Assembly: GCA_041594355.1 (NCBI GenBank)
Contig: JBFHMM010000001.1
Span: 5,872 to 69,871 of the forward strand
From: Paracoccaceae bacterium
GTDB lineage: Bacteria; Pseudomonadota; Alphaproteobacteria; Rhodobacterales; Rhodobacteraceae
Reading direction: 5' to 3'
Length of the DNA: 64,000 nucleotides
Positions 10,889-57,533 of the stretch are shown here, one piece after another. Positions within the stretch are counted from its first letter, which is position 1, and every line of letters begins with the position of its first letter. A program made the position numbers and the translations under genes. The notes beneath the pieces were generated by a model. It had not been told where the DNA came from. It did no database searches and was given only the letters and a program-made list of their open reading frames with translations.

Positions 10889-11755
10889 ATGTTGGTCAGT
10901 CATCAATACAAGTTCATTTTTTTGAAACCGGGTAAAACCGCGGGAACTTCGGTCGAAGTTTTCCTGGAGCCATTGTGTGCGGCGCCGGGGCACGTGTCGG
11001 CGCATGTCACGCCAACCATGGAAAGCCGCTTCGGTATTATTGGTGAGCGCGCGTCGGATCCGGATAGGAGCGGATTCTATAATCACATCCTGCCCTTCGA
11101 GTTGAAGCCCAAACTGGGAGACGAGGTTTGGAACAGCTATACGAAAGTTGCTACGGTCCGAAACCCATTTGACCGGGTCGTCTCGGCCTTTCACCACTTC
11201 AAGCTGGCGCTGGAAAAAAACGGAGCCCTGAGCCGAGACGAGGTCATCCGGAAATTCCGGGAGTGGATCGCGGAGTACAACATCAAGTCTCTCCAGATAT
11301 CGTCTTATGCGCAAATCGACGGGGAGCCATGTTTGGACTTCTTGATCAGATACGAAACCCTTGAGGACGACGTCCGCAGCCTTCTTAAGCGCCTCGGTGT
11401 CCTGCGTTCGTCTTTGGGGGATGTGCCCCGGCTCAAGACGGAATTTCGCAAGGGTGGCATTCCGCTGACCGACTACTTCGATGAAGAGACCAGGCAACGT
11501 GTTGTGGATAGCATGGTCAAGGACTTCGAACTTCTGGGTTACAGTGACCAGGTCGAAGATGCTGAGGCGGCCCGCTGCCGCCCTCAGGTGCCCAGTAGAA
11601 CGGATCTGGAACTGTCGGTGTTTACCGAATTGGCCGTTGCGACGGGGAGCAGAACGGTTGGCGGGGTTTGGACATCTGAAGATCTTGGGGCGCTCCAGAC
11701 CTTGCTTACAAGATCATTCCGGATGGTGAGGCGGGAGAAGGACAGAAACTTCTGA
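10889..11755 (+). CDS. Sulfotransferase (family 2-like) with C-terminal microprotein-like domain
   Basis: 5'-PSB FLKPGKTAGTS, 3'-PB VRNPFDRVVSAF, IRYETL, DFELLGY, then an extra ~60-aa tail. Confidence 0.85.
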   Translation: MLVSHQYKFIFLKPGKTAGTSVEVFLEPLCAAPGHVSAHVTPTMESRFGIIGERASDPDRSGFYNHILPFELKPKLGDEVWNSYTKVATVRNPFDRVVSAFHHFKLALEKNGALSRDEVIRKFREWIAEYNIKSLQISSYAQIDGEPCLDFLIRYETLEDDVRSLLKRLGVLRSSLGDVPRLKTEFRKGGIPLTDYFDEETRQRVVDSMVKDFELLGYSDQVEDAEAARCRPQVPSRTDLELSVFTELAVATGSRTVGGVWTSEDLGALQTLLTRSFRMVRREKDRNF

Positions 11756-11823
11756 CCAAGTTCACATCCGGCGGCAACCTGATTGAATGGTCCGGATGTT
11801 CAGCAACATTTTGAGAGGTCAAC

Positions 11824-12621
11824 ATGACAGTTGTTATTGCCCACGGTCAACCGAAGTCCGGCAGTACGTTTCTTTACATGACGGCGATGGAAATTGCGCA
11901 GAACGTGAACAGCGAGGAATTCTATACCTACAAGAACCGTGTGCTTGGTGAAGATTTTCCGACATTCGTAGATGAAATTACGGCGGATTTCGTGCTGGAT
12001 CTGGATAACAGAATCCCGAGGCACCAGATGTTCATCATCAAGACCCATGGCGAGCTGAGCGAGGATCTTGCCGCGATCATCGCCCGGGGCCAGGTCAAGG
12101 CTTTCACCTCGTTTCGGGATCTGAGGGATACGGCGCTGTCGACCCTGGACGTCGCGGTCAAAGACCGAGAAATCGGCGATGCGAGATACTTCGCGAAATA
12201 CAACGAGATCGAGCAATTGCGAAACGCGATCCCCTGGCAGTGGAACGCCGTGTCGCCCTGGGTCCGGTGCCCGGGCGTGTTTGCAAACCCCTACTACATG
12301 ACGGCGCTGTCCCAATCGACTTGTGTCGGGCTTTTGGCGCGTTACCTTGGCGCGGGTTACATGTCCAATACGCTTGCCGCTGAAATGGACGCGAAGCGTA
12401 CCAGCCTGCCTGAGTACAACAAGGGTGTGTTGGACCGGTTTGTCAGCGAGTTGAGCCCCAACGCGATTCAATTCGCCAACGAAACCTGGGCTGCTGAAAT
12501 TGCAGAATACAATGCTCTTCTCGAAACCAAGATGGCGGAACTGGGTCATGCCATGGCCTGCCATTATTACATGCGTATGCGCGATGCAAAGATTACCGAA
12601 CGCCTTGCCGAGGCTGCCTAG
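11824..12621 (+). CDS. Sulfotransferase-fold (P-loop) protein
   Basis: GQPKSGSTFL, IIKTH, FRDLRDTALS. Confidence 0.7.
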   Translation: MTVVIAHGQPKSGSTFLYMTAMEIAQNVNSEEFYTYKNRVLGEDFPTFVDEITADFVLDLDNRIPRHQMFIIKTHGELSEDLAAIIARGQVKAFTSFRDLRDTALSTLDVAVKDREIGDARYFAKYNEIEQLRNAIPWQWNAVSPWVRCPGVFANPYYMTALSQSTCVGLLARYLGAGYMSNTLAAEMDAKRTSLPEYNKGVLDRFVSELSPNAIQFANETWAAEIAEYNALLETKMAELGHAMACHYYMRMRDAKITERLAEAA

Positions 12622-12741
12622 TTTCGCGGCAAGATGACGGGTGACGCGTAAGTTTGGAAGGCTGAAGGCAAGGCCGTCTGCCCCGTGCATCCGATGTGAT
12701 GCTAGATTGTGTGAGGTGCCTTTGCTCTTGGAGTTGCCGAA

Positions 12742-15534
12742 ATGTTTTTGGATTTGAAGCTAGGCGAACAGTTCGAAAATCTAGACATACCAGATTCCGT
12801 ACGGGATCTCGCGGCGAGCGGTGAACCGTTCAGGACGCGCTTTGCAAAGATCGGGGACCTGTCCCTGTCGGTAGGGGAGCAGGAAAAGATCCGCAAGACT
12901 GCCGTCCAATTGACCGATCAGGCGAACTTGAGGCTTGCCGTCGTGCTGTGGGGCATGCTGCATCACCTGACGCCGACGAATGTCAATTATCTGCGCCGCA
13001 TTGTGCAATGCATCGTGGGGGTCTCCAATCCCGGTGTCTTCGCCGACTGCCTGTCCGACGGATGTCTGACCGAGGAGATTTGGAAGGACTGCGGCAACAG
13101 CCTGAACCATGCGATTCGGGTCAGCCTGGAGACGGAGGCGGACGACCGGCACGCGCTGCTCAAGACCCTGCTGCTGAGCAAGGCCGACAACACGCAGATC
13201 GCGCTCAACATGCTCAAACCTCTGCCGTCCAGGATGGTCGATGACTTCATGGAGGTCTGCCTGCGGGACGAGACCGTGCTGGAGGACCGGAAACAGATCC
13301 GGATCCTGTGCCGGCTAACCGAGCGGGCGGGCCATCCGAAGGCGGCGGCCCGCGCTTTCCCGCTCACCATCGGCGACAAGCAGAAGATGACGTTTCACCA
13401 GGCGCTGCTTGGCGGGCGGATCGCCGCGCAGACCGGCGACATCGAGAAGCTGGAGCATTTCAAGGTTCTTTGCCGCGCCGCTGCCCGGGAGACCCCGGAC
13501 CAAGCCCGCGAGTCGGCGATCTATCACCTGCTGTTCTTCGATTCGAGCGATGACAAGGCCATCGATACTGCGGTCGAGGTGATCAGCGACACGCTGGATC
13601 GCAAGGATCTGAACATGTCGCTGTTCTGGATTTACCTGGAAACCATCCTGAAGAAGAAAAAGGGTGGCGTATTGCTGGACAGGATCGCGCTGCGGGTGAG
13701 CGATGCGGCCATGGCCGAAAAGATCGCCATCCTTGCGGATGTCGTCAACGGCAAGGCGACGACGGAACGGGTTCTGAAAAGTTGCGTGGACGGGTTGTGG
13801 GATGATCCCAACACCGCCGGCCGGCTGATCTCGCGGATGGTCGGGCAGATCGACAACGAGGCAGAGTTGATCAGGGCGCTGGATATCCTGGGCAGCCTGG
13901 ATCCCACGTCGATGAAGATTCTCCGTTCCCATAGCCAGCAGTGGCGCGAAGGCGGCAAATACGAGCTGGCTGCGCATGGCTGGCGCGCGCTGGTGCGGGT
14001 CAATCCGCGCGACGACTGGGGCCGGGTCAACGCGATCTACTGTTTCCAGGTGCAGGGCGCGCTGGAGGCCGCGCGGGCGCTGACCGATGACTGGAACCTG
14101 GAGGCCTGCAGCGAGATCGTTCTGATTCACGCGGCGGCGTCGTTTGCCCGGGTAGGGCTTTCGGAGAAGGCGCGGGAGCTGTTCCTGCAGGCCGACGCGG
14201 CCTTGCGCGACGGGGTCGACTCGCTTCCCGAGGTGCACCGCCAGGCCCTTGCGCGGGGGCTGATCCTCTATGGTGAACTGGAGCGCGCCACGGCCTATGT
14301 TCCACCGCGTAAAAATCGGGGTGCACACCGCCCGGATCCCTCGCCGATCGTTCTGCTGGACCCCGGGCACACCGACAGCTCGGGTCACCACGCCAATTAC
14401 AACATCTTCTTTTCCGATTTCGTGCTGGAACATGACGGCGTGCGGCCGGAGATCCTGATCGGGCAGAAAACCCCGGGCACGGCGCTGGAAGGGCACGACG
14501 TGTTCCCTGCGGTGGTCTTCGAGCCCTATGTCTACAATGACTACAGTCTGGGCGCCGCCGAAATCGCCGGATTGAACGCGTCCTTCCGGCAGGAACTGAC
14601 CACGCTGTTCCAGGATCATGTGCCGGACACGCTGATCATGCATTCGATGCGGGCGATCATGCTCAGGGGTTTCGTGCAATGGCTCGAAGATCTAGGCGAC
14701 CGGCGTCCGCGCAGGCTGGCAATCGGCCTGATCGAGGCGGATCACCTGGCCGATGCGGAGTTGTCCGAAGTCTATTCCCAAGCTCTCAGCGACCCGCTGT
14801 CCAACCTCGGGCAGATGCATGTTGAGACGTTGATCCTGTTTGCCGAAACCACCTTTGCGGTGGATTGGCTGCAACAGCACGCGCCCGGGATCACGGTACA
14901 CAAGTTCCCCTATCTGGCGGCGGGCCGCGCGGCGCAGGCGGCCACCGGGTTCGATACGCTGCGTGCCGCGACCCCGGTCTTTGGCATCCTGGGGGCCACC
15001 CGCAAGGAGCGCGGGTTCAACCCGATCTTCCAGGCGATCCTGCAGGAAGGCGCCGCCGCGCCGCATTGGCATTTCCAGGTCGACGACCGGGCGGTGGGGC
15101 GGTTCGGCGACGATACCGCCGACCTGCTCGGGCAGATCGAGACCCGGATCGAGGCCGGGGAGCTTGACCAGGTCGACATCCTCAAGGGCTTCCTGTCGGA
15201 CGAGGAATATTACGGCGCCTTCGGGCGGCTGAACTGCCTGGTGTTGCCCTATTCGGGGCGCTATGCGGTGTCTGGATCCGGGGTGCTTTACGAGGCGGTC
15301 TACAGCCGCAAGTATCTGATCATTTCCGAAGGTTCGACGCTGGCGATCGAACTGGCGGAAATCGGCTATCCACACCGCACTGTCGACGTCGACGATCCCG
15401 AGACGATCCGGCGGGCGGTGGCAGAGACCGCGGCGGCCTGGCCTGCCATCGTGGATGAGCTGGAGACCTATTTCGCGGGCGCGCCGAAACTGCCGCTGGA
15501 AGGGTTCCGCGGGCTTTATACCGGTGCCGGGTAA
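12742..15534 (+). CDS. Helical/TPR-like N-terminus + GT-B (GT4-like) glycosyltransferase
   Basis: C-terminal LLDPGHTDSSGHHANY, GATRKERGF, LPYSGRYAVSGSGVLYEA. TPR-like helices around residues 390-520. Confidence 0.7.
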   Translation: MFLDLKLGEQFENLDIPDSVRDLAASGEPFRTRFAKIGDLSLSVGEQEKIRKTAVQLTDQANLRLAVVLWGMLHHLTPTNVNYLRRIVQCIVGVSNPGVFADCLSDGCLTEEIWKDCGNSLNHAIRVSLETEADDRHALLKTLLLSKADNTQIALNMLKPLPSRMVDDFMEVCLRDETVLEDRKQIRILCRLTERAGHPKAAARAFPLTIGDKQKMTFHQALLGGRIAAQTGDIEKLEHFKVLCRAAARETPDQARESAIYHLLFFDSSDDKAIDTAVEVISDTLDRKDLNMSLFWIYLETILKKKKGGVLLDRIALRVSDAAMAEKIAILADVVNGKATTERVLKSCVDGLWDDPNTAGRLISRMVGQIDNEAELIRALDILGSLDPTSMKILRSHSQQWREGGKYELAAHGWRALVRVNPRDDWGRVNAIYCFQVQGALEAARALTDDWNLEACSEIVLIHAAASFARVGLSEKARELFLQADAALRDGVDSLPEVHRQALARGLILYGELERATAYVPPRKNRGAHRPDPSPIVLLDPGHTDSSGHHANYNIFFSDFVLEHDGVRPEILIGQKTPGTALEGHDVFPAVVFEPYVYNDYSLGAAEIAGLNASFRQELTTLFQDHVPDTLIMHSMRAIMLRGFVQWLEDLGDRRPRRLAIGLIEADHLADAELSEVYSQALSDPLSNLGQMHVETLILFAETTFAVDWLQQHAPGITVHKFPYLAAGRAAQAATGFDTLRAATPVFGILGATRKERGFNPIFQAILQEGAAAPHWHFQVDDRAVGRFGDDTADLLGQIETRIEAGELDQVDILKGFLSDEEYYGAFGRLNCLVLPYSGRYAVSGSGVLYEAVYSRKYLIISEGSTLAIELAEIGYPHRTVDVDDPETIRRAVAETAAAWPAIVDELETYFAGAPKLPLEGFRGLYTGAG

Positions 15535-15568: not shown

Positions 15569-16270
15569 CTACCGGGTTGGCTTGACCCGGGGATCGTCGA
15601 GATATTTCAGCGGCATGAAGAAGATATCGCACTGCAGCAGCCCCGTCCCGGGATCTTCGGGATTGACCAGAACGTCTGCTGTCGGCCGTCCGAAGGCCAA
15701 CCCGGAAATCGAGTGCACGAAGAAGCCGTGCGCGTGCATGAAGCTGGCCAGATCCAGGAACTTGCGGCGGTTCATCTCGAGCACCACCACATCGCAGGAT
15801 TTCAGGGTCTCGACCGCGCCTTCCAGCACCAGTGACTCGGCTCCATCGACGTCGACTTTCAGGAAGAAGGGTCCCTTCAGTCCGCGTTCGGCAAGGAAGG
15901 TATCCAGCTTTATTGTTTTGACGACAGATACCGAGCCAGGCGATTTCGCGGAGTCGGAGATCATTCGCCCGTGTGACGGCAACTCTATGTCGGTTGTCTT
16001 GTGTTCGGCAACGAATTCGGTTTCCCCGTCTTCATTGCTGCAGGCACATTCGACAAGTTCATAGTCAAGTTCGGCATAGTTGTTGCGGATTGTCTCGTAC
16101 CATTCGGACATCGGTTCGAACAGGAACTGCCTGGACTTTGGAAACTGGCTTTTCAGAAAAGGCGTTTCTGCACGAATGCCCACATCCAGGATGGTGTTGA
16201 ATGTCAGCCCCGCCTGTCTGAGCTGCCAGACAACCTGGCCGGGGTTTGTGCTTTTTGAAATCCTTGACAT
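15569..16270 (-). CDS. FkbM-family methyltransferase
   Basis: ILDVG, FEP, KLDTF, FLKVDVDGAESLVLEGA, QCDIFF. GAGGAG RBS before ATG 16270. Confidence 0.88.
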   Translation of the reverse strand: MSRISKSTNPGQVVWQLRQAGLTFNTILDVGIRAETPFLKSQFPKSRQFLFEPMSEWYETIRNNYAELDYELVECACSNEDGETEFVAEHKTTDIELPSHGRMISDSAKSPGSVSVVKTIKLDTFLAERGLKGPFFLKVDVDGAESLVLEGAVETLKSCDVVVLEMNRRKFLDLASFMHAHGFFVHSISGLAFGRPTADVLVNPEDPGTGLLQCDIFFMPLKYLDDPRVKPTR

Positions 16271-16640
16271 GAAATCCACTCCTCAAATGATTTTGCCACG
16301 ACCCGGTCAATATTGTGTGGTCGGTGTTACCCTACCACGAAAGAGGCGTGACCTCGCCATCGCCAAGGGGTGTCGGCGGTTCATCGCGTGTTCCGTGAAG
16401 GCGGATGGTTGTTTTTGCGGCATCCCGAAAATTTCCCCGAACGGGTGACAACAAGTCCCTTGCCACCTTTTGTCCTGTCGGCATACACCAGGTTCCGGAT
16501 AGATGACGCGCACCGGTCAACGCCCTCATTGTGGGCAGACCGCCGGGGCATCAGACCAAGATGTGTGGGAAAGGGCTGAAAGTCGTTTCCTGCAATTTGT
16601 ATAATTTAGGGTGCCTGGCACTCGTTAGACGGAAGAACTC

Positions 16641-17705
16641 ATGAAAAAAGCACTTATTTCCGGCGTCACTGGTCAAGACGGCGCTTATCTTGCCGAATTG
16701 CTGCTGGCCAAGGGATACGAAGTTCATGGCATCAAGCGCCGGTCCTCATCGTTCAACTCGGCCCGGATCGACCACCTGTACCAGGACCCGCATGAGACCG
16801 GCACGGTGTTCAAGCTGCACTACGGCGATTTGACGGACTCCACCAACCTGATCCGCCTGATCCAGGAAGTGCAGCCCGACGAGATTTACAACCTGGCCGC
16901 CCAGTCCCACGTGCAGGTCAGCTTCGAGACCCCCGAATACACCGCCAACGCCGATGGTATCGGTACCCTGCGGATGCTGGAGGCGATCCGCATCCTGGGC
17001 ATGGAGAAGACCACCCGGTTCTACCAGGCCTCGACCTCGGAGCTCTATGGTCTGGTGCAGGCGGTGCCGCAGTCGGAGACCACGCCCTTCTACCCGCGCT
17101 CGCCCTATGCGGCGGCGAAGCTCTATGCCTACTGGATCACGGTGAACTACCGCGAGGCCTATGGCATGCATGCCTCTAACGGCATCCTGTTCAACCACGA
17201 AAGCCCGCTGCGCGGCGAGACCTTCGTGACCCGCAAGATCACCCGCGCGGTGGCGGCGATTTCGCTGGGCCTGCAGGACCGGATCTACCTCGGCAACCTC
17301 GACGCACAGCGCGACTGGGGCCACGCCCGCGACTATGTCGAGGGCATGTGGCGCATCCTGCAGCAGGACGAGGCGGACGATTACGTGCTGGCGACCGGCG
17401 AAACCCATACCGTGCGTAGTTTTGTCGAGGCCGCCTTTGCCGAGGTCGATATCAAGGTCGAATGGAAGGGCGAAGGCGTCGACGAGATCGGCTACGAGGC
17501 GGGTACCGACCGGGTGCTGGTGTCGATCGATCCGCGCTACTTCCGCCCCACCGAGGTGGACCTGCTGATCGGCGATCCGACCAAGGCGAAGGAAAAGCTC
17601 GGCTGGACCCATACCGCCAGCCTGGCCGAGATGGTGGCCGAGATGGTTCGCTCCGACATCGACGTCGTGCAGCGTGAAAAGGATCGCAAAGACCGGCATG
17701 GCTGA
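16641..17705 (+). CDS. gmd: GDP-mannose 4,6-dehydratase
   Basis: [59 protein letters not shown]. Confidence 0.98.
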
Positions 17706-19542: not shown

Positions 19543-19651
19543 GCCCGAACCGCGTGGATCGGCGGCGCCCGGGCGGGGCGGTTGTCAGTCTCGCGCCGGA
19601 CGACCGAAATTGGCACGGATAGTGGTGCACCATTTTAAGGACGCGGCAGCC

Positions 19652-39674: not shown

Positions 39675-39697
39675 GGGCGGTGTCCCCTGTAGGCAGG

Positions 39698-47408: not shown

Positions 47409-47412
47409 GCGG

Positions 47413-50652: not shown

Positions 50653-50670
50653 ACGTGGTCCCGGAGGCCC

Positions 50671-51186
50671 CTAGCCCTGCCCGGACAACTGCGCGTCCAG
50701 CTGCGACTTACGGGCCTTGATGGTGCCGATCTGGTCCAGCTCGGGATGGGTTTTCAAAACCTCGCCCAGAGCTGACTGGGCCGATTTCAGATAGGCCGCG
50801 CCACCCGCCCCGCCGCCGGCCATGCCCAGTTCGTGCTCGGCAGTGCCCTGAACCGCCAGCGCGGCGCTGCGGAAGGTGCCCTTCTGGCTGGTCGCCAGCC
50901 CGCGCGCCTGTTCGGCGGCCTGGGCATACTGGCCATTGCGCAGCAGCGCATGGGCATAGTCCAACCGGAACCGCGCCTCATAGCCGCCCGCCCCGTCCAG
51001 CAGCTGCGCGTAACCGCGCACCGCCTTGTCGTACTTGCCATCCTCCAGCGCCTCGCGGGCGGACAGGTATTGCCGGCGCATGGCGCTGTTGTCGCCGCTG
51101 GTCTCTGTGCAGGCGGTCAGCAGGACGCTGGCGCCAATGCACAGAACACCGGCCGCGACCGGGATCCGAATTCCATGTGTTTTCAT
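50671..51186 (-). CDS. TPR-like lipoprotein inside the T2SS cluster
   Basis: Lipobox LTAC; helical repeats (YLSAREALEDGKYDKA, YAHALLRNGQYAQA). Confidence 0.75.
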   Translation of the reverse strand: MKTHGIRIPVAAGVLCIGASVLLTACTETSGDNSAMRRQYLSAREALEDGKYDKAVRGYAQLLDGAGGYEARFRLDYAHALLRNGQYAQAAEQARGLATSQKGTFRSAALAVQGTAEHELGMAGGGAGGAAYLKSAQSALGEVLKTHPELDQIGTIKARKSQLDAQLSGQG

Positions 51187-51279
51187 GACCTGCTCTTTTG
51201 GTTTTTTCTTTATGTTTATATGAATTGGCCGATCCGGTCTACGCAGCTGATCGCGGTCGCGCCGCATACGGGGAAAACT
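51187..51279. promoter_or_regulatory. AT-rich divergent promoter region (lipoprotein / gspC-D-E-F)
   Basis: tttggttttttctttatgtttatatgaattgg lies between divergent genes. Confidence 0.45.
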
Positions 51280-51744
51280 ATGGCAGTTCGGTTACTCGCA
51301 TTTCTCTGCGCCCTGGCGGCGCTGGCCGGGCTGGCGCTGGCGGCGCGCGACCTGAACCGGGTGCTGCGCGCGCCCGCGCCCGACACCGTTGCCGCGCAGC
51401 CCGGCGGCGCACAGCCGCAGCCCCCAACCCCCGCGCCGCCCGTCCCGCCGGCGCAGGCCTGGCCGCCGTTGTTCGGCACGCTGGTGGTGCCTGAACCGCA
51501 GCCACCGACGCCGCCGCAACCCCCCGCCCCACCGGCGCCGCCGCTGTCCAGCCTGGGTTTCACGCTGAAAGGCACGGCCACGCTGAACGGCGAAACCTGG
51601 GCGATCCTGGCACACCCCACCGGCGAACGGATCCTGCGGGTGGGCGACTTGCTGGCCGAGGGGCTGCAGGTCGTGGCGATCGACGACAGCGGGCTCTGGG
51701 TTGGTAGAAACGGTGGCCGCGAAGTGCTGGAATTCTCGCAATAG
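51280..51744 (+). CDS. GspC-like T2SS protein (TM, Pro-rich linker, HR-like domain, no PDZ)
   Basis: N-terminal TM, PLFG, Pro-rich linker, LKGT...WAIL...RVGD.L.EG..V..I. Upstream of the secretin. Confidence 0.7.
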   Translation: MAVRLLAFLCALAALAGLALAARDLNRVLRAPAPDTVAAQPGGAQPQPPTPAPPVPPAQAWPPLFGTLVVPEPQPPTPPQPPAPPAPPLSSLGFTLKGTATLNGETWAILAHPTGERILRVGDLLAEGLQVVAIDDSGLWVGRNGGREVLEFSQ

Positions 51745-51928
51745 AGCCATATTCCGCCGCAGCGGCGGCACGCAGGCCACAACCCCGCACCCCGCGCATG
51801 CCGGGGCATCATAGCCGTATGCTTTTGCCCGCAACTGGGCTAAACTGCGCTCATAATCAGAGCGGAACGACCCGTGAACCGGGCGGAACAAGACCAAAAG
51901 AAACAAGAAGACAGGCGGATCCACATAG

Positions 51929-53899
51929 ATGACTTGGCTGGCAAGGCTGCACGCCACCCTGATGACGGGTAGGGCGGCAACGGTTCCGGTGCTGATCCTA
52001 ATGGCCCTACTGGCCATCGCTCCCGCCGGGCCGGCGCGGGCCCAGGTCGAACTGGACCTGCGCGATGCCGACCTGCGCAGTTTCGTCACCATCGTCGCCG
52101 ACGCCACCGGGCGCGGCTTTGTGCTGGACCCGCAGGTGCGCGGCACGGTCACCGTGCTGGCCCCCGACGGGCTGCCGTCCGATGCGCTCTACGAAGTCTT
52201 CCTGAACGTGCTGGAGCTGAACCGGCTGACCGTGGTCGAAGGCCGCGGCGCCGACCGTATCGTGCCGCTGTCCTCGGCCCGCGAACTGTCCGGGGCCAGC
52301 GGCACCGTAGAGCTGGATGGCGGCTTCGAGACCCGGGTGATCGAAGTGCGCAACGCGCCGCTGCAGGAGGTGGTCGAGGTGATCCGCCCGCTGTTGCCTT
52401 CCGAGGCCGTGCTGACCGCGATCCCCCGCGCCCGCCTGCTGGTGCTGTCGGACCGGGGCGAGAATTTCCGCCGTATCGAGGCTCTGATCCGGCGGCTGGA
52501 CCAGCCCCGCGCGCAGTTAGTCACCATGGTGCCGCTCTATAACGCGCGCGCCGATGACGTCTATCAGGTGGTGCAGTCGCTCAACATCATCCCCCCGGAC
52601 GCCTCGGTCACCGTCGATCGCCGGTCGAACGCGCTGGTGGTGGCAGGTTCGGCCAGCCTGGCCGACCAGATCCGGGTGCTGGTCGAACGGCTCGATACCC
52701 GCGATGTCGGCATCGCATCGGCGGTGGAGACGTTGAAATACGCCGACGCCACCGCGCTGGCCGACGTGATCCTGCGCAGCTTTACCGGCCAGCAGCAGGT
52801 TTCCGGCAGCGAGGAAACCATCTCTATCGTGCCCGATCTGGCCACCAATTCGCTGTTGATCACCGCGCCCGCCGACAAGATCCAGAACATCCTCGCGATG
52901 ACCCGCCACCTGGACCGCCGCCCGAAACAGGTGCTGGTCGAGGCGGTGGTCTTCGAGATGTCGGTCGAAGGGTTCTCCGATCTCACCGTGCAGTTCGGCG
53001 CCGTGGTCAACAACGCCATCATCGGCGGGGTCGAATTCGACCTGGCCGGCCGCCCCACCCTGACCAGCCTGCTGACGGCGGCGGCCAACGGCGAGCCGAT
53101 CTCGCCCGGGACTGGCGGCACCATCGGCGGCGGCACCCAGAACGGCGATGACGCCATCGCGGGCTTTCTGTCGGCCGTGGCCACAACCAATTCCACCCGT
53201 CTGCTGGCAACCCCTTCGATCATGACCCTGAACAACCAGGAAGCCGAGATCGTCGTCGCCCAGAACGTGCCCTTTGTCACCGGATCCTATTCCACCGTCG
53301 GCGACACCAACAATCCCGAGAACCCGTTCCAGACCATCGAGCGCGAAAATGTGGGTCTGACATTGCGCGTCACGCCGCAGGTGACCGGCGACGACACCGT
53401 GCGCATGACCCTGGAACAAGAGGTGTCGCGGCTGACCAACAACACCGCCGCCTCGGGCGGCGAGATCACCCAGCGCCGCGCCCTGACCTCGACCGTTCTG
53501 GTGCGTGACGGCAATGTGGTGATGCTGGGCGGGCTGCTCGAGGATACCTCGGTCTCGCAATCCCAGCGGGTGCCGACGATTTCGGAAATCCCGGTGGTCG
53601 GCGCGCTGTTTCGCGGCAAGAACGCCCGCGAAGACCAGCGCATCCTGCTGGTGATGCTGCGCCCCCGCGTGGTCAGCAACGACGCCGAGGCCAAGCGGCT
53701 GGCGGATCAGGCCGCCCGCGACGCCCGCCGCGCCACCCGCGCGCTGCAGCCCGACAACCGTGATCAATTTCCCAAAACACCCAGCGGGCTGTTCCCCTAT
53801 GCTGATGGCGATCTGAACCTGCCGTTTGATTCGGGCTTTATCGACGATGTCGCACAAAGCAGAACCCTCCCGCCGCTCCCGCCCCGGCTTGACTTCTGA
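51929..53899 (+). CDS. gspD: T2SS secretin
   Basis: DADLRSFV..VA..TG..FVLDPQVRGTVTV, QVLVEAVVFE, LATPSIMTLNNQEA, VGLTLRVTPQ, IPVVGALF. Confidence 0.96.
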   Translation: MTWLARLHATLMTGRAATVPVLILMALLAIAPAGPARAQVELDLRDADLRSFVTIVADATGRGFVLDPQVRGTVTVLAPDGLPSDALYEVFLNVLELNRLTVVEGRGADRIVPLSSARELSGASGTVELDGGFETRVIEVRNAPLQEVVEVIRPLLPSEAVLTAIPRARLLVLSDRGENFRRIEALIRRLDQPRAQLVTMVPLYNARADDVYQVVQSLNIIPPDASVTVDRRSNALVVAGSASLADQIRVLVERLDTRDVGIASAVETLKYADATALADVILRSFTGQQQVSGSEETISIVPDLATNSLLITAPADKIQNILAMTRHLDRRPKQVLVEAVVFEMSVEGFSDLTVQFGAVVNNAIIGGVEFDLAGRPTLTSLLTAAANGEPISPGTGGTIGGGTQNGDDAIAGFLSAVATTNSTRLLATPSIMTLNNQEAEIVVAQNVPFVTGSYSTVGDTNNPENPFQTIERENVGLTLRVTPQVTGDDTVRMTLEQEVSRLTNNTAASGGEITQRRALTSTVLVRDGNVVMLGGLLEDTSVSQSQRVPTISEIPVVGALFRGKNAREDQRILLVMLRPRVVSNDAEAKRLADQAARDARRATRALQPDNRDQFPKTPSGLFPYADGDLNLPFDSGFIDDVAQSRTLPPLPPRLDF

Positions 53900-55361
53900 A
53901 CCGCTCCCCGGCGGCGAGGCCCCCCGCCTGCCCTTTGCCTTTGCCCGCGACCAGCAGGTGCTGCTCGACGGTCCCCGGCTGATTGCCGGGCCCGCCGCCA
54001 CGGCCCTGGGCCTGCGCGAGGCGCGCCGCAGGGCCGGGCAGCCGCTGCAGCTGATCGAAGAACCGCAGGACCTGTTCGACCTGGCCCTGACCCGGCTCTA
54101 TCAAAGCGATCCGACGGATCAGACCGCCCCCGAGCTGACCTTCGATCTGGAAGACAGCGCCAGCACGACAGGCCACCGCGACCTGCTGGACGAGGTCGAG
54201 GACGCCCCGGTGATCGAGATGGTCAACCAGCTGCTGCGCCGGGCGGTTCAGGCCGGCGCCTCGGACCTGCATGTGGAACCGCATGAAACCGGGCTGCGGG
54301 TCCGGATGCGCCGCGACGGGTTCCTGCAGACGGTGATGGACCGTCACGACGTCCCCGTGCGCCGCATCCTGTCACGGCTCAAGGTGATGGCAGGGCTGGA
54401 TATCGCCGAAACCCGGCTGCCGCAGGACGGGCGCATTCCGCTGCGCATGGGCGGGCGGCAGATCGACACGCGGGTGTCCACCATGCCAGGCAGCTACGGC
54501 GAACGCATCGTGCTGCGGATCCTCGACCGCTCCACCGGGCTGGTGCCGCTGGACCAGCTGGGCCTGAAGCCGGAACAGATCGACATGCTGGAACGGCTCT
54601 CGGCGCTGCCCAACGGCATCATCCTGGCCACCGGGCCAACCGGCTCGGGCAAGACCACGACGCTTTATTCGCTGCTGAAACTGTCGGACCTGCACCAGCG
54701 CAACATCGTCACCGTCGAGGACCCGATCGAATATGACCTGCCGCAGGCCTCGCAGACCCAGATCAACGCCGAAATCGGCATGACCTTTGCCGCCGGGCTG
54801 CGCGCCACCCTGCGCCAGGACCCCGATGTGATTCTGGTGGGCGAGGTCCGAGACGCGGAAACCGCCACCACCGCCGCGCAGGCGGCGCTGACCGGGCACC
54901 TGGTGTTCTCCTCGCTGCACGCCAATGGGTCGGTGGGGGCGATCACCCGGTTGCGCGACCTGGGCCTGGACGATTTCCTGATCGCCTCGACCCTGCGGGC
55001 GGTGATCGCCCAGCGGCTGCTGCGCCGGCTCTGCCCCGATTGCAAGACATCGCACCCCCCCACCCCGGCGGAACAGGCGCATTTCGCCCGGCTGGGCGTG
55101 CCCGCCCCGGCACAGGTCCACGCCCCCGAAGGCTGCGACGCCTGCAGCGGCACCGGCTACCGCAGCCGGGTCGGCATCTTTGAAATGATCGAGGTCGACG
55201 AGACCCTGCGCAGCGCCGTCGATCGCGGGGCCTCCGAGGCCGAACTGAAGGGGCTGGCGCTGTCCCAGTCCGACACGCTGATGGGTCAGGGACTGGCCCA
55301 GGTAGCCAATGGCGCCACCAGCCTGGCCGAAACCCTGCGCGTGGTCGGGGACAGCGTGTGA
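53847..55361 (+). CDS. gspE: T2SS ATPase
   Basis: ASDLHVEP, PQDGRI, Walker A GPTGSGKTT, TVEDPIE, LRQDPDVILVGEVRD, Zn motif CPDC...CDAC. Start approximate. Confidence 0.96.
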   Translation: MSHKAEPSRRSRPGLTSEPLPGGEAPRLPFAFARDQQVLLDGPRLIAGPAATALGLREARRRAGQPLQLIEEPQDLFDLALTRLYQSDPTDQTAPELTFDLEDSASTTGHRDLLDEVEDAPVIEMVNQLLRRAVQAGASDLHVEPHETGLRVRMRRDGFLQTVMDRHDVPVRRILSRLKVMAGLDIAETRLPQDGRIPLRMGGRQIDTRVSTMPGSYGERIVLRILDRSTGLVPLDQLGLKPEQIDMLERLSALPNGIILATGPTGSGKTTTLYSLLKLSDLHQRNIVTVEDPIEYDLPQASQTQINAEIGMTFAAGLRATLRQDPDVILVGEVRDAETATTAAQAALTGHLVFSSLHANGSVGAITRLRDLGLDDFLIASTLRAVIAQRLLRRLCPDCKTSHPPTPAEQAHFARLGVPAPAQVHAPEGCDACSGTGYRSRVGIFEMIEVDETLRSAVDRGASEAELKGLALSQSDTLMGQGLAQVANGATSLAETLRVVGDSV

Positions 55362-56578
55362 AAGCTTTTGCCTATACCGCCTTCACCGCCGAGGGGCGGC
55401 GCAAATCCGGCAGCCTGATTGCCGAAAGCGAGGCCGACGCCACCCGCCAGCTCAAATCCCGGGGCCTGTTTGTCTCCGATCTGCGCGCGCGCAGCAGTCG
55501 GCGGACATCGGGACGCGGCAAAGGGTTTTCCCGCCGCCACCGGCTGAACGCCGATCTGCAGGCGGTGTTCACCCGCCAGATGGCGGTTCTGCTCGGCGCC
55601 GGGCTGACCAGCGAATACGCGCTCGAAGCGGTGCGCTCCGCAGGCAGCAGCCCGGCGATGGAAGGGCTGGCCACCACCGCCAAGGCGGCGCTGCTGGACG
55701 GCCAGCCGCTGTCCGAAGCGCTGGAGGGCAGCGGCGCGGGCTTCGCTCCCTATTACATCGCGTCGATCCGGGCGGCCGAGAATTCCGGTGACGTCGGCGA
55801 GGTCTTTGCCCGGCTCGCCGATCATCTCGAAACCACGGGCATCGACCGCGCACAGGTCTCGACCGCGCTGATGTACCCGATGTTCGTGGCCGGCGTGTCG
55901 GTGCTGGTCTGCATCATCCTGATGACCACCGTGGCCCCGGAAATCGTGTTGATGTTCGAAGGCTCCGGTCGCCCGATGCCGCCCCTGACGGTGGCCATGC
56001 TCACGGTCAGCGACTGGATGTCGGCCAACTGGGTGCAGCTGCTCGGCGCTCTGACAGCAGCCTTGGTGACCTATCTGCTGGCCATGCGCGTGCAGACATT
56101 CCGCGACCGACGCGACGGGCTGCTGCTGCGGCTGCCCCTGGTGGGCAGCCTGATGCGGCAATCGGCAGCGGTGCAGTATCTGCGCACGCTTGCGCTGGTG
56201 CTGACCAGCCGCCACGCTGTGGTGGGCGCGGTCGACAGCGCTGCGGGCGTCCTGACCGTGACCCGGTTCCGGCGCGAAGCCGCCGCGGTATCGGACGTGG
56301 TGCAGGCCGGCGCACGGCTGTCCGACGCGGTCGCCGAACTCACGATCATCCCCCCCGTAGTGCGCCAGCTGATGAGCGTCGGCGAACAATCGGCCAACCT
56401 GGCCCGCATGACCGAACGCAGCGCCATACTGGTGGAAAACAACCTGCGCAATGAACGCAAACGCATCGCCGCATTGTTAGAGCCGGTTCTGATGATGGTC
56501 GTGGGCGGTGGTGTTCTGGTGATCGTGCTGTCGGTGCTGCTGCCGATCTTTGATCTGCAGTTCATCGTGACAGGCTGA
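55358..56578 (+). CDS. gspF: T2SS inner-membrane protein F
   Basis: F.Y.A, FTRQMAVLL.AG, AE.SG, LMYP, GEQS, LLEP...LLPIF. Confidence 0.94.
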   Translation: MKAFAYTAFTAEGRRKSGSLIAESEADATRQLKSRGLFVSDLRARSSRRTSGRGKGFSRRHRLNADLQAVFTRQMAVLLGAGLTSEYALEAVRSAGSSPAMEGLATTAKAALLDGQPLSEALEGSGAGFAPYYIASIRAAENSGDVGEVFARLADHLETTGIDRAQVSTALMYPMFVAGVSVLVCIILMTTVAPEIVLMFEGSGRPMPPLTVAMLTVSDWMSANWVQLLGALTAALVTYLLAMRVQTFRDRRDGLLLRLPLVGSLMRQSAAVQYLRTLALVLTSRHAVVGAVDSAAGVLTVTRFRREAAAVSDVVQAGARLSDAVAELTIIPPVVRQLMSVGEQSANLARMTERSAILVENNLRNERKRIAALLEPVLMMVVGGGVLVIVLSVLLPIFDLQFIVTG

Positions 56579-56583
56579 GATAA

Positions 56584-56735
56584 AGGGGGCTCTGCCCCCG
56601 CCGCCAGAGGCGGCTCCCCCGGGATATTTCCAAACAGAAGAAGCCAGAGGTATGCTGCTTCTTCTGTTCCAAAATATCTCAGGGAGTTTGAGGGACAGCG
56701 TCCCTCATCAAAAATGGAATGCGCCGAAGGCGCGC
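56584..56735. repeat. Composite palindromic (REP/REPIN-like) extragenic element
   Basis: Hairpins GGGGGC-TCT-GCCCCC and GCCGCC-AGA-GGCGGC; imperfect 24-bp inverted arms at 56621-56644 and 56657-56680; TGAGGGAC-AGC-GTCCCTCA; GCGCC-GAA-GGCGC. Lies between convergent genes. Confidence 0.75.
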
Positions 56736-56750
56736 AGTATGGAAACGGTG

Positions 56751-57533
56751 TCAGACCTTCAGGCCCAAAGCCTCGATCAGGTCTGTATCGGCGGTCACAA
56801 AGTCCTCCAGCCGTCGCGCGGCGGCGTCACTGCCCAGACGGTCGAGCAGCTTTGGCCAACGTGCCTCGTCCGGCTCGATCATGCCCTGATTGACATAGGT
56901 CTCGGTGACCGAAATCTCGGCGCCGTAGCGGTCCGCGATGTCCCGTTCCAGCGCGCCCAGGTCCAGGGTCGAATAGATCCTGTCGAACAGCGGCAGGTTC
57001 TTTTGCGCCGCCGCGACCTTTTCCGCACTGCTCAGCGCCTGCATCTGCTGGTAGCCCCGCATTTTGCGGGTGGCGAAATAGCTGCAGTAGAAATTATCGT
57101 AGTGGTCGTGGATGAACCGCTGGAACCCGGGGTTGCCGCCAAAAAAGTAATCCTCGGCCGAACAGCGCAGCAACCGTTTCTTGCCCGCGTGTTGCGGCAG
57201 GTCCAGATCCTCTTCGCTGAGCGCCTGCGCCTCTTTCATCAGGAAAAAGTAGAACGAGGCGATCCGTTCGCAAGGGTCGCGCAGAACAGAGAACACAAAG
57301 CGGCTTTCGGGCAGGGTTTCCAGCTCGGACCAGTCCAGATGTCCGGAATAGAGACTGTATCCCGGCGGCATCTGCGGCGCGTCGCCTGGGACCTGGGTAT
57401 GCACCCGGATCGGGCTGACCTGCGTCTCCCCCACCACCTGGACCAGGGCATTGTGAATGGTCTGTCCCGCGGTCTTGGGGATATGCAGGAATACGATCGG
57501 CGCAGTGGCGTCGGCAGGGGTCGTCAGGTTCAC
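56751..57533 (-). CDS. Sulfotransferase (family 2-like)
   Basis: [29 protein letters not shown]. Confidence 0.85.

Follow-up and report, generated by a model that had tools for sequence, protein, structure and literature searches.

The 64,000-nucleotide stretch of DNA analyzed here, hereafter the window, is likely (probability about 0.7) the core of a large surface-polysaccharide island whose product is one or more heteropolysaccharides of fucose and/or mannose, heavily sulfated in the cytoplasm. The host is a Seohaeicola-like member of the Rhodobacteraceae, of the marine roseobacter type, represented by a fragmented assembly (3.7 Mb in 296 contigs, 82% complete) of whose bases the window makes up 1.7%. 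A sulfotransferase fold was assigned to all 12 ORFs for which a preliminary description had proposed one, and each of these ORFs is open where it had been placed (Table 1). The longest reading shifts two starts upstream of the ATG, to 10880 (not 10889) and 17674 (not 17698). ORFs are named below by their first coordinate.

Table 1. Genes of the window, with strand and the evidence for each assignment
Feature	Coordinates	Strand	Evidence
YjbH- and YjbF-like exopolysaccharide/group-4-capsule proteins	29..2448	+	PF06082 2.3e-166; PF11102 3.1e-28
1099-aa soluble glycosyltransferase, GT2 + GT1/GT4	3195..6494	-	PF00535 2.5e-23; PF13692 1.3e-18
ManC, mannose-1-phosphate guanylyltransferase/mannose-6-phosphate isomerase	6863..8311	+	TIGR01479; Pfam NTP_transferase + MannoseP_isomer
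DXD-motif glycosyltransferase (Gly_transf_sug)	9484..10392	+	PF04488 5.8e-8
Sulfotransferase, Sulfotransfer_2 type	10880..11755	+	ATG 10889; PF03567 E=4.5e-13, 50.3 bits (cut-off 22); loop PGKTAGTS at residue 19; R94-x7-S
Sulfotransferase, family foreign to Pfam and NCBIfam (alignment A2)	11824..12621	+	Model and Foldseek
930-aa protein, probably GT4-type glycosyltransferase (lead only)	12742..15534	+	ESM Atlas
FkbM-family methyltransferase	15569..16279	-	PF05050 5.8e-17; TIGR01444 66 bits (cut-off 37.7)
Gmd	16641..17705	+	TIGR01472 607 bits (cut-off 415)
Atypical sulfotransferase-fold protein between gmd and fcl	17674..18540	+	ATG 17698; profile A3; model
Fcl, GDP-L-fucose synthase	18604..19542	+	NF047922 527 bits (cut-off 500)
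1076-aa protein, no family match	19505..22735	+	Atlas 0.82, 'glycosyltransferase family' cluster (weak lead)
944-aa protein, GT1/GT4 domain at residues 598-730	22732..25566	+	PF13692 2.2e-15
Sulfotransferase, family B paralog	27312..28358	+	A1 member; loop PHKSGTST; R117-x7-S
Sulfotransferase, family B paralog	28369..29331	-	A1 member; loop HAKTGSTS; R126-x7-S
Sulfotransferase, family B paralog, A1 query	29365..30372	-	A1 profile
Sulfotransferase, Sulfotransfer_3 type	30416..31186	-	PF13469 E=4.2e-7, 30.9 bits (cut-off 27); loop APRTGSTL; R-x7-S at 104/105
Hexapeptide-repeat O-acetyltransferase, within sulfotransferase array	31399..32166	+	Pfam Hexapep 2.8e-9
Sulfotransferase, Sulfotransfer_3 type	32142..32930	-	PF13469 E=3.7e-6, 27.8 bits (cut-off 27); loop PARSGSTA; R115-x7-S
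Sulfotransferase, family B paralog	32927..33916	-	A1 member; loop RHKSGTSS; R119-x7-S
Sulfotransferase, distant Sulfotransfer_2 type	33913..34620	-	Homologs reach PF03567; loop FKNAGTS; R84-x7-S
GSCFA-family protein, same minus-strand run as sulfotransferases	34666..35757	-	PF08885 1.9e-42
Weak GDSL-like protein, same minus-strand run	35754..36566	-	PF13472 only E=0.008
Membrane permease fused to FG-GAP/ASPIC-UnbV repeats	36579..39884	-	FG-GAP_3, UnbV_ASPIC, ArsP_1
Sulfotransferase, 10880 paralog	39698..40351	-	blastp to 10880 5e-14 over 220 columns; loop TKTAGTS; R89-x7-S
Type II secretion (T2SS) genes	45207..56578		Prepilin peptidase, gspG, I, J, K, L, M, C, D, E, F (Pfam T2SS families)
Sulfotransferase, Sulfotransfer_2 type	56751..57533	-	PF03567 E=6.2e-8, 33.5 bits (cut-off 22); loop IPKTAGQT; R85-x7-S
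Hexapeptide-repeat acetyltransferase adjoining 56751	57530..58267	-	Pfam Hexapep 8.5e-13; NCBIfam below cut-off
845-aa glycosyltransferase, GT2 + GT1/GT4	58264..60801	-	PF00535 6.3e-17; PF00534 3e-9
Small priming polyprenyl-phosphate sugar-phosphate transferase	61017..61631	-	PF02397 5.2e-46
Outer-membrane polysaccharide export protein (Wza/OPX type)	62556..63707	+	Poly_export 3.8e-16; SLBB_2

Classification by HMM, proposed in the preliminary description as a check, places four of the 12 above Pfam cut-offs by themselves (10880 and 56751 in PF03567; 30416 and 32142 in PF13469) in a scan of 58 window ORFs. The remaining eight were identified via homolog profiles, profile matches to PDB sequences, or AlphaFold models searched with Foldseek. 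At least three subfamilies had been suggested, and blastp separates five sequence groups. Within family B, 27312 matches 32927 (3e-10) and 29365 (3.5e-8), while 28369 matches 29365 at 8.7e-23. The query 29365 has 13 homologs, one of them carrying PF13469; across the 16 sequences of alignment A1, K14, E100, and R131 do not vary and S139 hardly varies, and the A1 profile, which covers all four paralogs, matches PDB entry 3rnl, 'Sulfotransferase', at 2e-11. ORF 33913 itself falls under the PF03567 cut-off (E=0.014, 16 bits against 22), has 1183 cluster representatives at E<=1e-3, and is linked to that family by 8 of 10 stand-alone homologs scanned, which reach the cut-off. No Pfam match of its own was found for 39698. 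The C-terminal tail of its paralog 10880 (residues 242-285) repeats a neighboring 56-aa ORF at 10632-10802 (50% identical).

How well is the PAPS-binding site preserved? The loop pattern [KR][STN]A?G[STQ][ST] matches 12 places in the 50 likely window genes (20,517 residues); one falls inside gspF, and the other 11 belong to 11 of the 12 candidates, always at residues 11-20. Both PAPS-binding motifs, the K/R loop and a strand followed by R-x7-S, are present in 11 ORFs, so the PAPS loops earlier assigned to all 12 hold with the exception of 17674, whose loop is degenerate. Combining a hydrophobic strand before the loop, the loop itself, and R-x7-S 55-150 residues downstream selects only 24 of the 13,309 stop-to-stop ORFs of at least 120 aa in the whole assembly, 11 of which are in the window, an enrichment far above chance. 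In families A1 and A2 the motif residues are invariant or nearly so among homologs 21-64% identical to the window protein.

The exception deserves separate treatment. The loop of 17674, HHFAASGGT, has no Lys/Arg, the residue that is presumably present in solved sulfotransferases, and R-x7-S, with its 3'-phosphate-binding serine, is also absent; the protein may therefore be inactive or work differently. Its relatives nevertheless identify the fold: of 92 homologs, 47 have a precomputed PF13469 assignment and 4 are named sulfotransferase, profile A3 matches the CurM sulfotransferase at 3e-7, and the top Foldseek matches of the model (pLDDT 85.5) are 3rnl, TPST2, tick TPST, the olefin-synthase sulfotransferase, and the CurM sulfotransferase. 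The gmd-17674-fcl order is not conserved, gmd/fcl lying within 1.5 kb in only one of 10 other loci of this family.

As the preliminary description had it, none of the 12 shows an obvious signal peptide: a crude Kyte-Doolittle scan found no hydrophobic segment in any of them, and they are therefore predicted to be soluble and cytoplasmic. Seven are packed into 7.3 kb (27312-34620). Among these, 33913, 32927, and 32142 are joined by 4-base stop/start overlaps, 32927 overlapping each neighbor and its stop the start of 32142, which argues for co-expression.

What would these enzymes act on? The manC, gmd, and fcl genes recognized earlier all exceed NCBIfam equivalog cut-offs (for ManC, 583 bits against 373), and the FkbM methyltransferase and two acetyltransferases described with them are present by Pfam and NCBIfam; 31399 resembles sugar O-acetyltransferases of NCBIfam only weakly, with every match below cut-off. 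At least six glycosyltransferase proteins occur in the locus, with several GT2 and GT4 domains among them. The 1099-aa protein 3195 has no hydrophobic segments, and its N-terminal ~460 aa have no Pfam match. Neither 12742 nor 19505 matches Pfam or NCBIfam; the ESM Atlas gives 12742 a feature score of 0.95 (209 of 256 features in common), its top clusters all being Glycos_transf_1. The priming transferase has one N-terminal hydrophobic segment and matches TIGR03025 at 2.2e-48, yet below cut-off, and the 36579 permease has about nine such segments. A CapD-type dehydratase is located upstream. Taken with the GDP-mannose supply and the glycosyltransferases, it points to a complex heteropolysaccharide or several polymers rather than a fucan. 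The preliminary description had envisaged a densely decorated, possibly fucan-like sulfated polymer. At the level of genes, the first part is supported by the sulfotransferases, their PAPS motifs, the glycan context, and PAPS capacity; 'fucan-like' is backed by GDP-fucose supply only, no fucosyltransferase having been identified in the locus, and the gene set suggests a heteropolymer. The glycan locus is split in two by the T2SS genes, which need not belong to the sulfation system; they share the gap between 39698 and 56751 with two Sel1-repeat genes and other ORFs.

PAPS itself would come from outside the window, where none of 58 ORFs matches the ATP-sulfurylase, APS-kinase, or PAPS_reduct families, in agreement with the earlier finding. 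The search for cysC/cysDN elsewhere in the genome that had been recommended located an ATP-sulfurylase/APS-kinase fusion on contig C19, with PUA_2, ATP-sulfurylase, and APS_kinase domains in one chain and an intact GSGKST loop. Since CysH carries cysteine motifs of the APS-reductase type (CC...CxxC), sulfate assimilation would seemingly proceed via that reductase, and PAPS is probably made mainly for the sulfotransferases.

The locus is collinear with that of the isolate genome Seohaeicola saemankumensis DP4N-5 at 95-97% nucleotide identity, which shows that the island is real; 10 of the 12 sulfotransferase ORFs lie inside stretches matching at this level. By synteny, the island appears to run on upstream across contigs C26 and C156, which hold six sulfotransferase-like ORFs, an ABC-2 permease, an ABC ATPase, and more glycosyltransferases. 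This brings the total to about 18 sulfotransferase-like genes (12 in the window and six upstream), the six and the ABC transporter being joined to the window only via the sister genome.

Could the island instead be a mosaic of two or more glycan pathways (O-chain, capsule, EPS), its sulfotransferases spread among them or carried in strain-variable cassettes, so that each polymer bears one to few sulfates per repeat and none is exceptional? We regard this combination as possible, though the less probable reading. About 11 kb of T2SS genes, together with the other ORFs of that gap, interrupts the locus, and each side, like the upstream part, could be devoted to a glycan of its own. Export parts are of differing kinds (YjbH/YjbF, Wza, and the upstream ABC-2), and the segment at 10-16 kb has a G+C of 0.57-0.59 versus about 0.65-0.69. 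In that segment, 10880 has no counterpart in DP4N-5 and 11824 is only 68% identical in DNA, between flanks at 95-96%, which gives the look of a swappable cassette. The published sulfated-glycan clusters compared here have 2-3 sulfotransferases (PMC8205485, PMC11641403). On the other hand, seven sulfotransferases in 7.3 kb, three of them translationally coupled, are hard to split over many polymers, and the window has a single priming transferase and a single OPX gene.

It is unlikely that most of the sulfotransferases act on acceptors other than polysaccharides (metabolites, lipids or glycolipids, secreted or T2SS proteins, tyrosine sulfation) and cluster here by coincidence. The idea draws on structure. 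ORF 11824 has no Pfam, NCBIfam, or PDB sequence match; down to rank 50, every PDB match listed for its AlphaFold2 model (pLDDT 91.6) is a sulfotransferase-fold protein that binds PAP(S), the best being small-molecule enzymes (cytosolic SULT, with SULT7A1 first at 1.8e-5, and glycopeptide-antibiotic sulfotransferases), and among the best matches of 17674 are sulfotransferases for tyrosylproteins and polyketides. The locus also contains the T2SS and a secreted-looking protein. However, structural neighbors at 11-18% identity say nothing firm on the acceptor, all 12 ORFs lie amid glycosyltransferase and sugar-nucleotide genes, and T2SS cargo folds in the periplasm while the 12 proteins have no export signals. 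Relatives of 33913 also occur fused to GT2 and GT1 domains (P0199), tying this family to glycan synthesis, and in 19 alphaproteobacterial loci other sulfotransferase types are often found next to relatives of 11824.

It is very improbable that much of the set of 12 consists of P-loop kinases, or of paralogs that have decayed or taken on regulatory roles, leaving a far smaller sulfation capacity: the atypical site of 17674, the guanylate and adenylate kinases among its lower Foldseek matches, and the eight ORFs below Pfam cut-offs by themselves speak for it, but 11 ORFs keep both motifs, GQPKSGST, K73-T-H75, and R98-x7-S106 of 11824 are invariant or nearly so across 15 homologs, every ORF is intact, with a GC3 typical of coding sequence (0.75-0.87), and most match the sister genome closely. 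The earlier suggestion that some members may be kinases finds no support even in the least certain, 11824 and 17674, which structurally best match sulfotransferases; the suggestion that some are inactive may fit 17674, whose cofactor site is possibly impaired.

How might a heavily sulfated heteropolysaccharide be built? On the cytoplasmic side of the inner membrane, the phosphoglycosyl transferase 61017 would prime a polyprenyl-phosphate carrier, and soluble, partly giant multi-domain glycosyltransferases would extend the chain from GDP-mannose (ManC), GDP-L-fucose (Gmd, Fcl), and other nucleotide sugars. Still in the cytoplasm, the 12 sulfotransferases of five families would pass sulfate from PAPS, supplied by the fusion protein encoded elsewhere in the genome, to particular hydroxyl or amino groups, with one methyltransferase and two acetyltransferases adding further decoration. 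Export would most likely proceed through the ABC-2 transporter of the syntenic upstream island and the Wza-type channel of the window.

Cytoplasmic, PAPS-dependent sulfation of surface glycans is familiar from the alphaproteobacteria: rhizobial NodH, LpsS, and KpsS sulfate lipo-oligosaccharide, LPS, and K-antigen in this way with a dedicated PAPS supply, as single enzymes placing one sulfate each. The locus may resemble them; the sole rhizobial trace here is that 30416 matches NoeE of NCBIfam at chance level (E=0.14). With solved sulfotransferases (Alicyclobacillus 3rnl, CurM, olefin-synthase, tyrosylprotein, Stf0, cytosolic SULTs) the window proteins have the fold and PAPS-binding elements in common, 11824 matching SULT7A1, SULT1C2, SULT1E1, and others at a TM of about 0.5; those enzymes are only 10-18% identical, and the window proteins need not share their acceptors (steroids, phenols, peptides, polyketides, trehalose). 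Fucoidan and the sulfated fucans of brown algae and echinoderms likewise combine GDP-L-fucose supply with multiple carbohydrate sulfotransferases. The analogy is functional only. Their synthesis takes place in the Golgi, whereas the pathway here would be bacterial, lipid-linked, and ABC-type, and GT2/GT4 domains with GDP-mannose suggest a heteropolymer where no fucosyltransferase was identified.

Two bacterial clusters invite comparison. The sulfated capsule of Vibrio sp. KMM 8419 involves three sulfotransferase genes over an 80-gene region with cysNDC inside the cluster, a co-location its authors call a hallmark (PMC11641403). This marine Gram-negative shares with our locus ABC-transporter-type assembly, sulfotransferases within a glycan locus, and the need for PAPS; in our case a separate contig carries the PAPS genes, and sulfotransferases are 4-6 times as numerous. 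The xss cluster for Synechan in Synechocystis sp. PCC 6803 comprises two sulfotransferases, eight glycosyltransferases, and Wzx/Wzy, for a polymer of Rha, Man, Gal, and Glc (Maeda et al. 2021; PMC8205485). There too, glycosyltransferases, sulfotransferases of differing subfamilies, and polymerization/export genes share one locus, and sulfation is set at cytoplasmic assembly. In place of two sulfotransferases there are 12 in the window and about 18 in the island; the locus lacks genes for Wzx and Wzy and has an ABC-2 transporter upstream; and GDP-fucose genes would set its composition apart, the likeness being one of gene content.

As a system the locus is of a familiar kind, marked by an extreme sulfotransferase count. 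Twelve sulfotransferases together with fucose-building genes make its product probably an unusually heavily sulfated polysaccharide, which would be a capsule, EPS, or O-chain of this marine bacterium.

How real is the concentration of PAPS-binding motifs in the window? Because its G+C content is high (0.57-0.73), likely genes were chosen by third-position G+C, and 58 ORFs were scanned with Pfam. The preliminary description had proposed twelve sulfotransferase-fold genes in at least three subfamilies. All twelve ORFs are open where it placed them, the longest readings of two starting at 10880 and 17674, with 10889 and 17698 as in-frame ATGs inside them, and all-against-all BLASTP resolves five groups (see the table). 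Across the 20,517 residues of the 50 likely genes, the loop pattern [KR][STN]A?G[STQ][ST] turns up at 12 sites; gspF has one of them, in its interior, and the other eleven fall at residues 11-20, one in each of 11 candidates out of the 12. A triple filter, which asks for the loop behind a hydrophobic strand and for R-x7-S at a distance of 55-150 residues downstream, was passed by 24 of the 13,309 ORFs of the 3.7-Mb assembly. Since 11 of these 24 fall inside the window, the concentration of PAPS-motif ORFs there is not a matter of chance.

Sulfotransferase groups and other glycan genes of the window (ORF starts or coordinates)
Position	Feature	Basis
10880, 39698 (56751 and 33913 weakly linked)	Sulfotransferase group i	All-against-all BLASTP
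27312, 28369, 29365, 32927	Sulfotransferase group ii, family B	All-against-all BLASTP
30416, 32142	Sulfotransferase group iii	All-against-all BLASTP
11824	Sulfotransferase group iv	All-against-all BLASTP
17674	Sulfotransferase group v	All-against-all BLASTP
29-2448	YjbH/YjbF	Pfam
3195-6494	Glycosyltransferase of 1099 aa, GT2 + GT1/GT4	Pfam
9484-10392	DXD-type glycosyltransferase	Pfam
12742-15534	Probable glycosyltransferase, lead only	Atlas, 0.95 to GT4 clusters
22732-25566	Glycosyltransferase, GT1/GT4 domain	Pfam
58264-60801	Glycosyltransferase, GT2 + GT1/GT4	Pfam
61017-61631	Small priming phosphoglycosyl transferase	Pfam
62556-63707	Wza-type exporter	Pfam

The preliminary description had proposed classifying each ORF by HMM. 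Pfam gathering cut-offs are passed by four of the twelve, 10880 (50.3 bits) and 56751 (33.5 bits) for Sulfotransfer_2 (PF03567, 22 bits) and 30416 (30.9 bits) and 32142 (27.8 bits) for Sulfotransfer_3 (PF13469, 27 bits). The other eight have sub-threshold Pfam matches at best at E<=10 and were assigned by other routes, and NCBIfam returns nothing meaningful for the twelve. ORFs 33913 (16 bits to PF03567) and 39698 (no match to it) were assigned through their relatives. The latter matches 10880 at 5e-14 across 220 columns in blastp, and the former has 1183 cluster representatives as relatives at E<=1e-3; of ten stand-alone relatives scanned, eight pass the Sulfotransfer_2 cut-off. Eight longer relatives were also scanned, and in such proteins the 33913-type domain is found fused to GT2 and GT1 domains (P0199), to a carbamoyltransferase (P0138), or to additional sulfotransferase-type domains, as many as three of them in a protein of 1165 aa (P0226). 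Just upstream of 10880, a 56-aa ORF (10632-10802) shares 50% identity over 44 residues with the C-terminal tail of 10880 (residues 242-285, window 11603-11755).

Family B is nearly invisible to Pfam. Searches with 29365 found 13 homologues, one of them with PF13469, and in the resulting alignment of homologues and the four paralogues (16 rows) H9, G11, K14, Q21, E100 and R131 are invariant and S139 is nearly so. PF13469 recognizes one of these 16 members (E=1.8e-5). By sequence alone 29365 has no relevant match in the PDB; the alignment profile matches the solved Alicyclobacillus 'Sulfotransferase' 3rnl at 2e-11. Searches with ORF 11824 returned 15 matches, namely the protein of the window itself and 14 homologues, all lacking Pfam domains. 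Conservation is complete or almost complete in GQPKSGST, K73-T-H75 and R98-x7-S106 (R98 invariant, S106 nearly). As the family profile found no relevant PDB match by sequence, 11824 was folded by AlphaFold2, giving a confident model (pLDDT 91.6, pTM 0.89). All Foldseek matches to this model among the 50 listed are PAP(S)-binding sulfotransferase-fold proteins at TM ~0.5, including SULT7A1 (1.8e-5), SULT1C2, LGS1, SULT1E1, Teg12/14, StaL and the related retinol dehydratase. ORF 17674, which reaches 15.9 bits to PF13469, below the cut-off, has 92 homologues; 47 of the 92 carry a precomputed PF13469 and four are named sulfotransferase by a source. Its family profile matches the CurM sulfotransferase at 3e-7 in the PDB, and its predicted model (pLDDT 85.5) is closest in Foldseek to 3rnl, TPST2, tick TPST, the olefin-synthase and CurM sulfotransferase domains and Stf0, with nucleotide kinases at lower ranks only.

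All twelve ORFs are sulfotransferase-fold proteins, on the basis of Pfam for four, blastp for 39698, the homologue scan for 33913, a PDB profile match for family B, a PDB profile match and model for 17674, and a model with Foldseek for 11824. The preliminary description had allowed that some of these P-loop proteins might be kinases; with the fold assigned throughout, PAPS motifs in place in 11 of 12 and sulfotransferases as top Foldseek matches of both 11824 and 17674, we reject that identity.

Can these proteins bind the sulfate donor? PAPS is held by an N-terminal 5'-phosphosulfate loop, a strand followed by K/R-[ST]-G-[ST]-[ST], and by a 3'-phosphate motif, a strand followed by R-x7-S, such as R130 and S138 of oestrogen sulfotransferase. 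The preliminary description would have been refuted if most of the ORFs lacked a PAPS-binding site; checked at the sequence level, 11 of 12 possess both the loop and the 3'-phosphate motif, 17674 being the exception to each. The loop in the 17674 family reads HHF[AS][AC][ST]GGT, with no Lys or Arg; R159 is present, but Pro stands at +8 where most relatives have Ser. Judged by these residues, 17674 may either lack activity or use another mode of donor binding, and the odds that it is active are roughly even. Conserved His or Glu residues in the alignments provide candidate catalytic bases: E100 in family B, H75 in the 11824 family, and E57, H126 and H128 in the 17674 family.

The sulfotransferases share the window with a glycan assembly set. 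The manC, gmd and fcl genes of the preliminary description are borne out by NCBIfam (583, 607 and 527 bits against equivalog cut-offs of 373, 415 and 500), and its FkbM methyltransferase and two acetyltransferases, of the hexapeptide type, are present as well; a GSCFA protein and a weak GDSL-like protein are further decoration genes. ORF 17674 is placed between gmd and fcl. This order was rejected as a general mark of a fucose-specific family, as gmd or fcl lies within 1.5 kb in one of ten other 17674-family loci, that one being the weakest match. Just outside the window, on its upstream side, is a gene for a CapD-type dehydratase. Sulfotransferases, glycosyltransferases, a priming enzyme and export genes lie together, the co-location by which a sulfated-polysaccharide locus such as that of synechan or of the Vibrio KMM 8419 CPS is recognized. 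Pfam found nothing in the halves of 12742 and 19505 or in the N-termini of 22732 and 3195, and no sulfotransferase domain came to light in these four large proteins when they were searched by HMM and phmmer with the full set of sulfotransferase queries. For 19505, the Atlas score of 0.82 is too weak to be of use.

The minus-strand genes 33913, 32927 and 32142 share four bases at each junction, which suggests coupled translation. Sharing a minus-strand run with sulfotransferases is 36579-39884 (-), which encodes 1101 aa comprising a permease (about nine hydrophobic segments, ArsP_1 / SO_0444-like) and FG-GAP and ASPIC/UnbV repeats, and which is the only multi-pass membrane protein of the window. 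As annotated, the gene begins inside 39698-40351, with which it shares 187 bases, so that its real start probably lies further downstream. ORFs 39698 and 56751 are separated by about 11 kb of type II secretion system (T2SS) genes, two Sel1-repeat genes and other ORFs; the T2SS set looks complete and lies with the two Sel1-repeat proteins, which have N-terminal hydrophobic segments, at 42327-56578, between the halves of the glycan locus. The intergenic region between gspF and sulfotransferase 56751 (56579-56751) holds a dispersed element of about 150 bases, for which blastn gives 13 additional matches, spread over 11 other contigs of the assembly, and over 25 in the sister genome, Seohaeicola saemankumensis DP4N-5. 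Its predicted fold has long hairpins (-79 kcal/mol for 173 nt), and it looks like a REP- or MITE-type repeat.

How far does the locus extend? Contig 16 of DP4N-5 runs collinear with the window, the two being 95-97% identical in nucleotide sequence. The exceptions are 10880 and its surroundings, which are absent from DP4N-5, and 11824, at 68% DNA identity between flanks of 95-96%. This divergent part coincides with a stretch of low G+C (0.57-0.59) at about 10-16 kb, and window positions of about 10000-16000 look like a strain-variable cassette inside the island. The sister also has some 790 extra bases (G001:C16:78927-79715) near window 39666-39698, at the end of sulfotransferase 39698. The sister contig continues upstream with genes for an ABC-2 permease and an ABC ATPase, GT2 and GT4 genes, an epimerase gene and additional sulfotransferases, of which one matches PF13469 at 1.7e-11 and another is fused to an alpha/beta hydrolase; measured from where window base 8001 aligns on that contig, the permease and ATPase are some 18-21 kb further upstream. 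Counterparts in the present assembly are found on contigs C26 (~1700-10600) and C156 (306-1979 and 4689-5309, with the permease and ATPase), which are joined to the window contig by synteny only and placed directly upstream of it. Searches with our own profiles and queries detect five sulfotransferase-like ORFs on C26, two of them overlapping on opposite strands as stop-to-stop frames with separate domains, and one on C156, bringing the island to about 18 sulfotransferase-like genes, against 17 in the sister genome.

Both genomes have serralysin-like metalloprotease and RTX-repeat proteins next to the island (upstream of the window at G000:C1:3-2318; sister L032:15714-19717). Beyond the island, sulfotransferase-like ORFs occur on C253, C148, C172, C122, C11, C55, C116, C32 and the start of C19, several with both PAPS motifs. 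In this assembly of 296 contigs, 82% complete, the genome probably encodes well over 20 sulfotransferase-like proteins.

A hydropathy scan, the one means by which signal peptides were judged, detects no clear membrane anchor in the sulfotransferases or large glycosyltransferases, two of these proteins having one internal hydrophobic stretch. The same scan finds no Wzx- or Wzy-like multi-pass protein in the window, and for both proteins the genome's best matches are found elsewhere, on C95 and C88. With its giant soluble glycosyltransferases, the ABC-2 transporter that synteny places upstream, and neither Wzx nor Wzy, the locus would fit an ABC-transporter-dependent pathway.

Where does the PAPS come from? 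As the preliminary description held, the Pfam scan finds no sulfate-activation gene in the window. The search for cysC and cysDN that it proposed for the rest of the genome located a single protein on C19 (7716-9770) with PUA_2, ATP-sulfurylase and APS-kinase domains. Its APS-kinase part keeps GSGKST, an intact Walker A loop, and LDGD, which we take to be functional motifs of this enzyme. Judging by these domains, the genome has the capacity to make PAPS, encoded outside the glycan locus. The sole PAPS_reduct-family gene of the genome adjoins sulfite reductase on C139 (8824-9957), and its CysH product contains CCTLRK...GCAPCT...ECGIH; CC...CxxC...ECGIH is presumably the iron-sulfur signature of APS reductases and not of PAPS reductases. 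With a CysH of this type, assimilation would bypass PAPS, and the APS kinase would mainly feed the sulfotransferases.

Is such a locus unique? At E<=1e-5, 121 of 150 other Rhodobacteraceae genus representatives have a family-B match, and the present genome is the richest with 13, with up to 14 candidates being scored in each genome. Four other loci, picked for their several family-B matches, have three to four family-B genes in 20 kb, and the queries used detect no further sulfotransferase type there. In one Rhodobacteraceae genome (G107, C1:3199753-3202848) three family-B domains are each listed with a 1102-aa open frame and may therefore share one frame, possibly as a triple fusion. The 11824 family is found through its profile at 19 alphaproteobacterial loci with one to six sulfotransferase-like ORFs each, the richest being a Caulobacteraceae MAG contig (L018) with six in 10.4 kb. 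The 17674 family is rare: at E<=1e-10, 8 of 400 other alphaproteobacteria have a member. Given these relatives of family B and 11824, multi-sulfotransferase glycan loci are not unique to this genome. Among the loci examined, and by counts from our own profiles that may miss other sulfotransferase types, the window locus is at the upper extreme in sulfotransferase number and diversity.

Poseidonocella belongs to the Rhodobacteraceae. The references of one paper (PMC7281560) include an entry on a sulfated O-polysaccharide from Poseidonocella pacifica. In the accessible portions of the published papers, sulfated polysaccharides are treated as rare outside cyanobacteria. The synechan cluster has two sulfotransferases and eight glycosyltransferases, and the accessible text of its authors describes two sulfotransferase genes in one EPS cluster as unseen in other bacterial clusters (PMC8205485). 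From similar excerpts, the CPS region of Vibrio KMM 8419 has three sulfotransferases with cysNDC in the cluster (PMC11641403), whereas the PAPS genes here lie outside the locus, on C19; Pontiella sulfatireligans F21 has three putative glycosaminoglycan sulfotransferases, one of them in a cluster (PMC7356697). As far as these excerpts go, the three cited loci (PMC8205485, PMC11641403, PMC7356697) contain two or three sulfotransferases, in contrast to 12 in 47 kb here and about 18 in the island, and the sulfotransferase counts in Supplementary file 3 (PMC8205485) and Table S4 (PMC7356697) may hold clusters larger than 2-3; among those papers, this would be the richest bacterial sulfation toolkit. 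A literature search of main texts, with most subscription journals outside its coverage, turned up neither this locus nor any account of roseobacter loci with multiple sulfotransferases.

What, then, is the product? With a probability of about 0.7, we predict from the gene content that at least one fucose/mannose-containing heteropolysaccharide is sulfated at multiple sites in the cytoplasm by PAPS-dependent enzymes and exported by an ABC/OPX route. The interpretation in the preliminary description is supported at the gene level, apart from its 'fucan-like' polymer; the many GT2/GT4 domains argue for a heteropolymer. Overlapping with our reading is its main rival, a tentative alternative in which the enzymes are divided among several glycans, so that no single polymer would be exceptionally sulfated. 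Unlikely, in our judgement, is the boldest version, in which all or most of the roughly 18 sulfotransferases act on one fucose-rich polymer, each at one specific position. Such a product would be hyper-sulfated, resembling fucoidan or glycosaminoglycans, and its charge density would be unprecedented among bacterial glycans. If this held, the Pfam-blind family B in 121/150 other genera would make roseobacters a widespread, overlooked marine source of sulfated polysaccharides, as well as a ready toolbox of regiospecific carbohydrate sulfotransferases.

Returning to the predicted sulfated heteropolysaccharide, the system is known in kind as a sulfated-polysaccharide locus, distinguished by five sulfotransferase families, a GDP-fucose pathway and PAPS synthesis apparently uncoupled from sulfate assimilation. 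What is remarkable is the enzyme count, the two unannotated sulfotransferase families invisible to Pfam and NCBIfam, and testability in a cultured strain: S. saemankumensis DP4N-5 has the same locus at 95-97% identity, which makes the prediction directly testable. The enzymes are candidate regiospecific carbohydrate sulfotransferases for heparin- or fucoidan-like materials. The presence of family B in most sampled Rhodobacteraceae genera hints that glycan sulfation by ocean bacteria is under-annotated, which would bear on marine carbon and sulfur cycling.
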